NCBI GenBank assembly: GCA_010093705.1
Contig: MU006115.1
Coordinates: 150,678-214,677, forward strand
Direction of reading: 5' to 3'
DNA: 64,000 nt
From: Patellaria atrata CBS 101060
Lineage: Eukaryota
In this document: one piece after another, positions 22,460 through 34,953 of the stretch
How the letters are laid out: each line of letters begins with the position of its first letter
Numbering within the stretch: position 1 is the stretch's first letter
The notes under the pieces: model-generated
What the model saw: the letters and a program-made list of their open reading frames with translations, nothing else
Databases searched by the model: none
What the model was told of the DNA's origin: nothing
Program-made: the position numbers and the translations under genes

Positions 22460-23139
22460 CTACACCGGTAACTCCGCCCCTCTCCGCCCTCCGCTAATCC
22501 ATTCGAACCCCCTCGCTATATATGGTCCCACTATTGGAACATTCCCCACAAATCCAGCAATCGTCGCGAAGAAGTCGCCAAATAGCACAAATATGCCATA
22601 GAGCTCGACTATAAAACCGATCAAAGGCCAACGGAAAAGGATGAGGAGAATGCCGGCGACGAAAGCTGCGGTGCCTTTAGCTTTTTGCTTGCGGGCGAAG
22701 AAAAGAAAGGTCTTTTGGGCGCCGATTATTAGGGTTAGGCCGGCTATGAAGAGAATCTGAGAGGGGGGAAGGTGTTAGTTTAGAGAGGCTAAGCCGGCGG
22801 AGCCGGGGGATTCTCTTTTACGAGGTTAGGGCGATAAAGGAATCGGGAATATCTACGTTGCCCATTGCTAACATTGCCCTATCAAAAAACATCATGACAC
22901 CACCAAGCAAAAAGAAGCCGCCTGTGGACTGTGGTGAGCGAAGGGGGGAAAGCCCAGTGGGGGTGGAATCCGTACCTACCACCGGAGCAAAAGGCGACTC
23001 CAATTTCTAAGGAAAGTTAGCATTGATACTAAGGAGCCTTTGAGAGGTTAGGCGTATGACTAGAGTGGAGGGATAAGGAGAGGGAGGTGGATAAGGAAGC
23101 CTACGTACTTTGCGAATCGCTTAACCACATTGTAGGCAT
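22460..23139 (-). CDS. GOT1: Got1/Sft2-family Golgi transport membrane protein; 4 exons
   Basis: Manual splice: [66 protein letters not shown]...FGDFFATIAGF...AELPV*. Confidence 0.93.
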
Positions 23140-32955: not shown

Positions 32956-34953
32956 ATGGCTTGGCGCAACCGGCAAGGCTTTACCGGTTCTAATAATATT
33001 CCTTTAGGAACCCGCCGTGGCTTTGGAGCCGACGGAGGCTCTACATCTGCCGATGATGGTGGCTACAACCCTTCAGCACCCGCAACTGGTCTCAGCGAAA
33101 TGAGTGCAAAGCGTGGGCGAAGCCCTGAGCGCGGTAAGTCCATCATATAACATATCATCGTTCCCTCTAATTTGTAAACCAGCTCCTCCAGATGTCGATG
33201 GTAGCAAACGTCGACGCAGGCGGAACCGCTGGGGCGAAAAAGAAGAGAACAAAGTTGCTGGGCTTATGGGTCTTCCAACTGCTATTACAGGACCGATGAC
33301 CCAGGAACAGATCGATGCATATGTCTTGCATGTCCGTATTGAGGAAATCACCAAGAAAATTCAAATCAACGATTACGTTCCAGCATCGCCAGACAGGTGA
33401 GCCTTGAAACTTCTCTTACAATCGATCAAAAGTCTAACTAATTTTCCAGGACGCCATCTCCTCCGCCACAATATGACAACTTCGGCCGTCGTACTAACAC
33501 GCGCGAGTTTCGCTACCGCAAAAAGCTTGAGGATGAGCGCCACAAGCTTGTGGAGAAAGCTATGAAGGATATTCCGGGATATAAACCTCCAGCAGATTAC
33601 AGGCGCCCAACCAAGACGCAAGAGAAAGTTTACGTCCCAGTAAATGACTATCCAGAAATTAACTTCAGTACGATGACTAACCCTAAGTTCCTAACCTCCA
33701 TGCTTTCCCATTTTCATGCTTTCTTTCATGCCCAGTCACTAACCCACATTCTAACATTTTTTGCTTACATAAAATTAACTTGAACACTAACACTTATTTT
33801 CCTTGCTACTAATAGTTGGTTTACTGATTGGACCTCGTGGAAACACTCTCAAAAAGATGGAGTCCCAATCTGGCGCTAAAATCGCCATCCGAGGGAAAGG
33901 CTCTGTTAAAGAGGGTAAGGGCAAATCTGACGCTGCCCACACTAGCAACCAGGAAGAAGATCTCCACTGCTTGATCATGGCCGACACCGAGGACAAGGTA
34001 AATAAGGCTAAGCAGTTGATCCATAACGTCATTGAGACTGTAAGTACCTCACTCTGACCCAAGCCTTGTATACAATCTTGTACTAACGAAGAGATTTAAG
34101 GCTGCCTCTATTCCAGAAGGTCAGAATGAGTTGAAACGGAATCAGTTGCGAGAACTCGCTGCGCTCAACGGTACTCTACGTGACGATGAGAACCAAGCGT
34201 GCCAGAACTGCGGCGAGATCGGCCATAGAAAGTTCGACTGTCCACAGGAACGTAACTTTACCGCATCCATCATCTGTCGTTCTTGCGGTAATTCTGGCCA
34301 CATGGCTCGAGACTGCCCAGACCGAGACCGCGGCACCAGCTGGCGAAACGATGGTGCACCCCCTGGACCACCTGGTGGACCACCACGACCCCGCCCAGAT
34401 AATTACGAAGGTGCTATGAACGATATTACCGGTTACACGGGGACTCAACAACGTATAGAGGGCGGTCCTGGCGGCTATTCCGCTAACGGAAACGGAGACG
34501 CTGCGGCGAGACCATGGGCCGTTGCTGCAACTGGAGGACCTGCACCTTGGCAGGTTCCACGGGACAACAATGCTGGAGGTGCACGCCCTTGGGCTCAAGC
34601 GCGTCCTCAAGAATCTTTCAATAGTTACGGTGCCCCACCACCAGCACCAAGCGCTCCTGGCGTAGCTCCATGGCAGCGTCCAGCCGCTGCTTCGCAACCC
34701 ACTGCGCCTGGCTACACTGCCTTCAATGGATTTAGCGCCGCTCCTGCTGCAAACAGCACGGCTTTACCACCACCTGGTCTTGGAGCTCTCTTTCAAAACT
34801 ACGGTCTTAATGCGGGGTCTCCTCCACCGCCACCTCCGAGCGATATTCCACCGCCTCCTGTTAGTATCCAGCTCCTCTAGCCCCTATTCAGTCACTGACA
34901 TAGCGCAGGCACCACCAGATCTCCCCCCTCCTCCACCACCTCCTCCTAGTTGA
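32956..34953 (+). CDS. MSL5: Branchpoint-bridging protein / splicing factor 1 (KH-QUA2, two Zn knuckles); 6 exons
   Basis: [80 protein letters not shown] and a Pro-rich tail. Introns 33134..33182, 33397..33449, 33668..33815, 34040..34100 and 34860..34908. Confidence 0.96.
33668..33815 (+). promoter_or_regulatory. BBP/SF1 intron 3 containing an array of branchpoint-like motifs
   Basis: CTAAC at 33677, 33691, 33739, 33751 and 33787; CTAAG 33683; TTAAC 33775; TACTAAT 33807 overlapping the 3' splice site. Confidence 0.8.

Follow-up and report, generated by a model that had tools for sequence, protein, structure and literature searches.

The 64-kb stretch of DNA analyzed here (hereafter the window) encodes the branchpoint-bridging protein BBP/SF1, and the third intron of this gene is crowded with copies of CTAAC, the core of the motif that BBP itself recognizes. 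This array is very probably a selected RNA-level element that controls the splicing of intron 3. The most likely interpretation, which the sequence favors modestly, is that intron 3 is a conserved cis-regulatory retained intron that lets BBP limit its own production, with BBP itself probably acting as the sensor in a loop of negative sign. This interpretation builds on the array, its position-specific conservation, its strand specificity, weak splice signals, a premature stop and the retention of intron 3 alone in complementary DNA (cDNA)-like contigs from relatives.

The gene occupies positions 32956..34953 of the + strand and comprises 6 exons that, once spliced, form a single open frame of 545 amino acids (aa). 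Intron 3 is 148 nucleotides (nt) long, compared with 49-61 nt for the other four introns, and splits the protein between ...EINF and IGLLIGPRG, at the start of the KH domain. Its features are as follows:

33668-33815, + strand: intron 3 of BBP in the splice model, 148 nt, GTACGA...TAATAG, G-poor (12 G)
33668..33673, + strand: donor GTACGA, non-consensus, following exon end TCA
33677, 33691, 33739, 33751 and 33787, + strand: starts of CTAAC (motif scan)
33676, 33738 and 33786, + strand: starts of ACTAAC (motif scan)
33677..33695, + strand: 5' cluster of CTAAC (33677), CTAAG (33683) and CTAAC (33691), the first motif lying at intron position 10
33738..33755, + strand: middle motifs ACTAACC (33738) and CTAAC (33751)
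33775, + strand: TTAAC (motif scan)
33781-33783, + strand: TGA, the first in-frame stop upon retention of intron 3 (open reading frame 33442..33783)
33786..33795, + strand: presumed branch site ACTAACACTT, with branch A at 33790, 25 nt before the G of the 3' splice site
33807-33813, + strand: TACTAAT abutting the acceptor AG at 33814-33815

The assignment of ACTAACACTT as the presumed branch site follows from its conserved position and context. Everything that the original prediction had read from this intron was recovered, namely its length of 148 nt, the GTACGA donor, five CTAAC, a CTAAG, a TTAAC and a TACTAAT on the acceptor. The splice model and Pfam also agree with its claim that the intron interrupts the KH domain before the GxxG loop, and the open reading frame 33442..33783 confirms that retention leads to a TGA at 33781.

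The density of the motif is exceptional within the window. When segments of 148 nt were slid along both strands of the 64 kb, 4-5 CTAAC were reached at intron 3 only and the maximum elsewhere was 3; in total the + strand holds 43 CTAAC and the - strand 52. Dinucleotide-preserving shuffles of intron 3 (n = 100,000) contained a mean of 0.45 CTAAC, with 1 shuffle reaching five (P ~1e-5). The runner-up in the window, 3 CTAAC in 96 nt at 22734-22829 on the - strand, falls at what is seemingly a coding/intron boundary of another gene.

We compared intron 3 with relatives found by scanning a metagenome contig collection with the exon 4 peptide, which identified 446 confirmed relatives, the best 80 of which were analyzed (89-96% exon 4 identity). 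Since the queries sit in exon 4, spliced and retained forms were equally favored. The best 80 are all Pezizomycotina-like, with Basidiomycota, Saccharomycotina and Taphrinomycotina outside the comparison. Exon 3 was also present in 75 of the 80 loci, and 74 were readable across the exon 3/exon 4 junction; contigs that begin within or after intron 3 (L028, L049, L053, L061 and L072) were excluded, as was L057 from the intron counts on account of its permuted order. Dereplication reduces the resulting 72 introns to 62 clusters when the threshold is 95% identity and to 38 when it is 80%.

Conservation of the array, which had been put forward as a test, was borne out in 70 of the 74 related loci spanning the site, each of which carries an intron of 137-264 nt at the same codon with 2-6 CTAAC (median, 5). 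Judged by the closest named protein and by a FastTree built on conserved exons, these loci group with references from five Pezizomycotina classes, the Sordariomycetes, Leotiomycetes, Dothideomycetes, Eurotiomycetes and Lecanoromycetes; the placements are approximate because the tree is short and poorly resolved. Across the 62 dereplicated introns (median length, 186 nt; median count, 5), two contained no CTAAC, one contained 2, four contained 3, 18 contained 4, 21 contained 5 and 16 contained 6. Control introns 1, 2 and 4 of the same gene (n = 38, 38 and 39) had median lengths of 51-52 nt and 0-2 CTAAC (means, 0.45-0.59), and ten longer control introns (73-169 nt) held 0-1 each. Over the 332,293 bases of the window and the 80 loci, both strands included, all 62 of the 62 clusters of at least 4 CTAAC within 190 nt fell at BBP exon 3/intron 3. 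The bias toward the sense strand was complete, with 292 CTAAC versus 0 GTTAG in 61 introns, and retention would introduce an in-frame stop in 60 of the 61, the first stop arriving late (median, ~130 nt).

Beyond the number of motifs, their positions are conserved relative to the splice sites (61 long introns, window included; L015 and L067 were excluded from the branch-site-anchored profile). The intron ends are 80-100% conserved, whereas the variable middle carries almost no information and usually one more CTAACC. At the 5' end, the first CTAAC lies at intron position 10 in 50 of 61 introns and at position 9 in 9 more (59/61 together), and the first 45 nt hold 2-4 CTAAC in 56 of 61, with the cluster consensus GTAtGaTtgCTAACCCtCTaAC and a conserved CCCU spacer between the first two motifs. 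At the 3' end, 59 of 61 introns have a branch-site form, (T/G/C)ACTAACA, whose branch A is 20-29 nt upstream of the 3' splice site, and the intron terminates in ACTAAC(N)AG in 21 of 61 and in ACTAA(N)AG or ACTAAG in another 19, the window among the latter.

Two classes of motif can be distinguished within this layout. Class I, CUAACC without an upstream A, occurs as 2-4 tandem copies from +9/+10 and once or twice in mid-intron; among 5'-cluster motifs, an A precedes in only 32 of 146 and a C follows in 98 of 146. Class II, (U/N)ACUAACA, is found a single time 20-29 nt upstream of the 3' splice site and often again against the AG, and its sites extend as ACUAACAC(U)U. An A precedes the presumed branch site in 58 of 60 introns and the terminal motif in 21 of 22, and an A follows the presumed branch site in 52 of 60. 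The core letters CUAAC are invariant across all units. We also observed that the TAA triplets of the 5'-cluster CTAACs are never in frame with exon 3 (0/146; frame 1, 78; frame 2, 68): all 14 distinct 5'-cluster motif positions avoid the in-frame phase, whereas the middle, branch-site and terminal motifs span all three frames.

The splice signals themselves are unusual, and intron 3 is built for poor splicing, with a low-consensus donor (GTAYGV after TCA), a mostly AAG acceptor and 3-4 times the usual length. Donors are GTATGA, GTACGA or GTAYG(G/C), and T at +6 is found in 0 of 60 intron 3 donors versus 27/33, 27/37 and 30/38 in the control introns. Acceptors of intron 3 are AAG in 38 of 60 cases and CAG in 22 of 60; the controls use CAG or TAG, with AAG in just 1/37 and 0/38. 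The window intron is a short yet typical example of this conserved layout, lacking only the proximal YAG described below.

Several contigs look as though they derive from RNA, an origin suggested by missing introns and by the positions of contig ends. In L011, L031, L034 and L066, introns 1, 2 and 4 are gone and intron 3 is kept; all three missing introns are present in every one of the genomic contigs closest to them (80-88% exon identity). Three of them (L011, L034 and L066) start 28-54 nt upstream of the ATG, and in silico removal of intron 3 from L011 and L034 yields one open reading frame of 585 and 617 codons, respectively, that runs through to the stop. The cleanest case is L057, in which introns 1 and 2 are missing and intron 3 is complete, with exons 99.7% identical over 639 nt to those of the genomic contig L068 (introns 1-4 of 48, 46, 193 and 49 nt). 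A partial contig, L025, also keeps intron 3, while the cDNA-like contig L023 contains the productive junction AATTTCA|TTGG and no intron 3. The tally of cDNA-like contigs is therefore five fairly firm cases and one partial case that retain only intron 3, versus one that is spliced. Efficient constitutive splicing, which had been named as an outcome that would count against a regulatory role, also looks unlikely in the relatives, where five cDNA-like contigs keep intron 3 alone; the RNA origin of these contigs is itself inferred, and they do not extend to the window organism.

Contig L057 has a further peculiarity. Over positions 1-1068 it carries a 120-nt terminal direct repeat and reads, in order, part of exon 3, intron 3 (193 nt), exon 4, exon 1, exon 2 and exon 3. 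Its exon 1 begins at the base after a CCTCTAG site, and the join runs from the exact 3' end of exon 4 to this YAG site within exon 1, with a 3-nt GTA ambiguity. The arrangement suggests either an RNA that keeps intron 3 and is circular through back-splicing or has repeated exons, or else a chimera made during assembly. Tentatively, the same transcript may also give rise to a back-spliced circular form that contains intron 3.

The remaining features of the gene and its protein bear on the identity of the proposed sensor:

32956 (ATG) and 34951-34953 (stop), + strand: start and stop codons of BBP (splice model)
33134-33182, + strand: intron 1, 49 nt, donor GTAAGT (splice model)
33397-33449, + strand: intron 2, 53 nt, donor GTGAGC (splice model)
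33450..33667, + strand: exon 3, with the end of SF1-HH and the first KH residues, terminating in ...EINF plus 1 nt
33816..34039, + strand: exon 4, with the KH core including the GPRG loop
34040-34100, + strand: intron 4, 61 nt, donor GTAAGT (splice model)
34101-34859, + strand: exon 5, with QUA2 at its start and two zf-CCHC
34860-34908, + strand: intron 5, 49 nt, donor GTTAGT (splice model)

From its sequence, the product of 32956..34953 is identified as the branchpoint-bridging protein BBP/SF1, with SF1-HH, KH-QUA2 and two zinc knuckles, because its Pfam domains and its KH-QUA2 alignments to structures of yeast BBP and human SF1 all point to this family. SF1-HH (PF16275), the U2AF65/Mud2-binding region, matches exon 2 (E 1.6e-13) and exon 3 (E 3.5e-24), which jointly cover profile positions 1-114, and KH-I_KHDC4-BBP (PF22675) matches exon 4 from profile position 10 (E 2e-20). 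Pfam places two zf-CCHC zinc knuckles on exon 5, and the C-terminus of the translation is Pro-rich. Against sequences from the PDB, exon 4 aligns to the KH domain of yeast BBP (4wal/4wan, residues 24-96) and human SF1 (1k1g, 25-98), and the start of exon 5 aligns to QUA2 (4wal, 100-128; 1k1g, 103-131), with human SF1 7vpx also matched. The named proteins that most resemble exon 5 are BBPs from many Pezizomycotina classes at only ~50-67% identity over most of the exon, and the window BBP branches near the base in a rough tree. Because exon 5 lacks a close named protein and the branching is near-basal, the window organism seems to belong to a sparsely sampled lineage of filamentous ascomycetes. 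Separately, coding exon 3 contains a perfect TACTAAC at 33492-33498 (codons R-T-N-T), and those codons are missing in 45 of 46 relatives.

UACUAAC is the RNA motif bound by the KH-QUA2 region of BBP/SF1; KH recognizes UAAC, and QUA2 recognizes the ACU part. When spliceosomes begin to assemble, BBP bridges the U1 small nuclear ribonucleoprotein (snRNP) and Mud2/U2AF, after which it must yield to U2 snRNP, and it helps to keep unspliced RNA in the nucleus. To our knowledge, sites a few nt from a donor, or two nt from an AG, are unusable as branch points; the 2-4 tandem sites from +9/+10 are accordingly unlikely to serve as such, being too close to the donor. We propose that at low BBP levels only the best site would be occupied and intron 3 would be spliced productively, whereas at higher levels the weaker donor-side sites and the site at the acceptor would be occupied as well. 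A graded affinity of KH-QUA2 is to be expected, with CUAACCC units at one end and UACUAACA at the other. The extra occupancy would block access to the donor and the AG, or trap non-productive cross-intron complexes, leaving intron 3 in place, and the retained transcript with its premature stop would either stay in the nucleus or undergo degradation. Three parts of the model are ones that we infer, namely that BBP occupies the extra sites, that the response depends on its dose and what becomes of the retained RNA, and the exact steric mechanism is less likely than the claim that BBP is the sensor. The KH-less fragment with only a U2AF ligand motif (ULM) that was once envisaged as a product has nothing to recommend it beyond the open frame running into intron 3. 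A broader possibility, which we raise tentatively, is that BBP/SF1 throughout the Pezizomycotina gauges its own free concentration on a purpose-built intron, in which graded decoys compete with an optimal branch site and the retained nuclear transcript forms a reservoir that is spliced when BBP drops, an arrangement that would amount to an ancient homeostat.

Several observations weigh against self-limitation by BBP, or at least fall outside it. The two sequencing runs that contain the window stretch (one sample of one study) consist of long, genome-colinear, DNA-like contigs without joints, so that the evidence for retention comes from relatives only. The origin of the cDNA-like contigs is undocumented, and L025 and L023 are ambiguous because intron 4 is missing from several genomic lineages. 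Three lineages also do not have the array: L032 and L037 carry ordinary introns of 97 and 52 nt at the site, with GTAAGT/GTAAGC donors and 0 CTAAC, and the genomic contig L051 has no intron there, though introns 2 and 4 are present. Because the loci share descent, fewer independent events lie behind them than the counts suggest. The A that QUA2 reads is absent from class I motifs, making other readers possible, such as pairing with U2 small nuclear RNA (snRNA) or a poly(C)-binding KH protein.

Two conserved elements near the branch site likewise lie beyond what the model explains. The first is a YAG (Y, C or T), kept in 55 of 61 introns, whose G falls 6-7 nt past the presumed branch A, with variable letters in between. 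Among the 58 introns with any AG ahead of the annotated acceptor, it reads TAG in 48, CAG in 9 and GAG in 1; it is missing in the window, where 33796-33797 reads AT, and in L002 and L003. This proximal YAG lies 13-36 nt upstream of the acceptor, and its use would add 13-36 nt to the message, out of frame in 44 of 58 cases; it may serve as an AG for early recognition or else as an alternative acceptor that is unproductive. The second is TTGATCA(T), located 5-15 nt upstream of the presumed branch site and common to Leotiomycete-, Pleosporales-, some Sordariomycete- and Lecanoromycete-like loci. As an aside, L032 and L037 form a long-branch pair, and together with L051 they provide three array-less lineages, natural 'knock-outs' for studying the control of BBP expression.

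Among other explanations, an unlikely one that nevertheless deserves consideration is that the intron is regulated through a sensor other than BBP, the CUAAC units being read by U2 snRNA pairing or by a protein that binds C-rich CUAACCC(U). BBP output would then be tuned to free U2 snRNP or to general spliceosome capacity. Class I CUAACC units without an upstream A, as tallied above, are not the optimal BBP heptamer, and both the conserved CCCU spacer and the ACUAACAC(U)U extension of class II sites favor such a reader, the extension offering longer complementarity to the branch-site-recognition region of U2 near GUAGUA. What argues for BBP instead is that the KH-read core CUAAC is invariant in every unit, and that the host gene encodes the one protein defined by binding the CUAAC motif, with no second cluster of this kind across 332 kb of fungal DNA. 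The window itself offered no U2 gene against which to compare the pairing, Rfam having matched nothing in it (0 hits).

It is also rather improbable that the array is an aid to splicing, in which extra sites give a long, weak intron priority on scarce BBP and retention is incidental. Several branch-site-like motifs can raise the local BBP concentration on an intron, the optimal site does keep the usual spacing to the 3' splice site (20-29 nt in 59/61), and the cDNA-like contig L023 carries the productive junction. Such a role would leave unexplained the donor without +6 T (0/60) and the AAG acceptor (38/60), where the controls use consensus signals, as well as motifs at +9/+10 and on the AG, positions at which they are expected to obstruct. 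Intron 3 alone is retained in 5 of 6 cDNA-like contigs, which also speaks against it, and selection for efficient splicing could simply drop or shorten the intron, as in L051, L032 and L037.

An origin outside RNA splicing, whether as a DNA site (telomere-like CCCTAA or a Myb/Tbf1-type box), a hosted small RNA, a nested intron or a neutral repeat, is hardly credible given that the motif is confined to the sense strand (292 vs 0) and its positions are tied to the splice sites, even though C-strand telomere repeats are similar to the 5' cluster CTAACCCT(C)TAAC, with AACCCTAA present in the window at 33679-33686, and long fungal introns sometimes carry small nucleolar RNAs (snoRNAs). A neutral repeat is excluded because the array is conserved across 38 clusters at 80% identity. 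A telomere-like DNA box was rejected, with CCCTAA found in just 10 of 61 introns and never twice. So was a stwintron: an internal canonical donor (GTRNGY) is missing in 50 of 61 introns, and a nested intron is unlikely in the window, whose only internal candidates are GTTCCT and GTCACT. Rfam likewise matched no family: 0 hits for 33400-34150 at E<=1, and 0 for the whole window at gathering score.

Candidate RNA structures fared no better. A conserved hairpin in the variable middle was rejected, as RNAalifold structures were weak and the covariation term was positive (+0.9 and +1.1) in two clade sets, a Sordariomycete-like one (10 introns) and a Leotiomycete-like one (7 introns), with compensatory changes in 3 of 21 and 1 of 26 predicted pairs. 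In one clade, TTGATCA(T) could pair with the donor GUAUGAUU over 8-9 bp; such pairing, in which the 5' splice site GUAUGAUU would meet UGAUCAUA just ahead of the branch site, is predicted for the Leotiomycete-like set only, Pleosporales-like donors (GTACGG/GTATGG) show no compensating change for it, and we do not claim it. A mini-hairpin CUAA-CAC-UUAG at the branch site is broken by the variants ACCTAG and ACGTAG, while the YAG stays.

How novel is a BBP intron that limits BBP? A full-text literature search, with subscription journals and supplements largely outside it, found neither a self-motif array nor autoregulation described for BBP, SF1, Msl5 or Bpb1. Two surveys of conserved fungal RNA elements (PMC5640933, PMC8216456) make no mention of branch point, SF1, MSL5, splicing factor or bridging, and in a survey of autoregulatory nonsense-mediated decay (NMD) events SF1 appears in the reference list only. 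If true, self-limitation by BBP would provide a natural, compact and conserved system for asking how branch-site occupancy, decoys and splice-site strength decide between splicing and retention, and a ready reporter of free BBP in filamentous fungi, including industrial species and pathogens. It would also be a feedback made from graded copies of a core splice signal, with no dedicated regulatory motif. Gene annotators gain a reason for a recurrent odd BBP intron with a non-consensus donor and an AAG acceptor. The wider question that it would address is how cells set the levels of constitutive early splicing factors.

SR and hnRNP proteins are familiar examples of negative feedback through unproductive splicing. 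In yeast, the proteins encoded by RPL30, RPL22 and YRA1 bind in or near their own intron and block its splicing. BBP would resemble these cases in binding its own intron-containing transcript with less productive splicing as the result, and the RPL30 site likewise adjoins the 5' splice site; in contrast, those cases use a single folded mimic of the normal target, whereas the BBP intron presents a linear, graded array of a general splice signal at both intron ends. Berglund in 1997 and Rutz and Seraphin in 2000 reportedly described roles of BBP/SF1 in commitment-complex formation and in nuclear retention of pre-mRNA. The present case shares with that work the protein family and the UACUAAC motif, but the known work concerns single branch sites in other genes; the hold that BBP has on unspliced RNA in the nucleus would suit an intron with many sites. 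As far as we know, the MSL5 gene of S. cerevisiae, the model in which BBP was defined, is intron-less, and for that reason the loop could not be seen in this yeast.

The closest fungal parallel is srp2, the SRSF5 orthologue of Neurospora and Aspergillus, for which NMD dependence was shown and whose retained intron is described as 'not notably conserved' in sequence among Aspergillus species (PMC4379411). Both are splicing-factor genes of filamentous fungi in which one unusually long intron at a conserved position is retained (for BBP, in the cDNA-like contigs of relatives) and brings an in-frame stop, with presumed negative feedback. Unlike what is reported for srp2, the ends of the BBP intron and its motif array are conserved across classes, and the motif is the site of the encoded protein itself; srp2 encodes an SR regulator with demonstrated NMD dependence, whereas BBP is a core constitutive branch-site reader known here from sequence. 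Mammalian detained introns, as presented in PMC4281565, are single internal introns in otherwise spliced polyadenylated transcripts, are enriched in RNA-processing genes and possibly form a nuclear reservoir. The cDNA-like BBP contigs, if they do derive from RNA, similarly keep one internal intron of an RNA-processing gene in an otherwise spliced form, but in that study Sf1 features as a loading control or antibody and not as a detained-intron gene. CUGBP2 is reported to autoregulate through sites around branch points in its own pre-mRNA (PMC2715136), and so shares with BBP the proposed interference with branch-point use in its own transcript; it differs in binding flanking GU-rich sites at a vertebrate alternative exon, as opposed to a retained intron in fungi. 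Together, these comparisons point to a familiar principle; what is new, as far as our search extends, is the factor itself, the placing of graded decoys, copied from a core splice signal, at either end of the intron, and how widely the arrangement is conserved.

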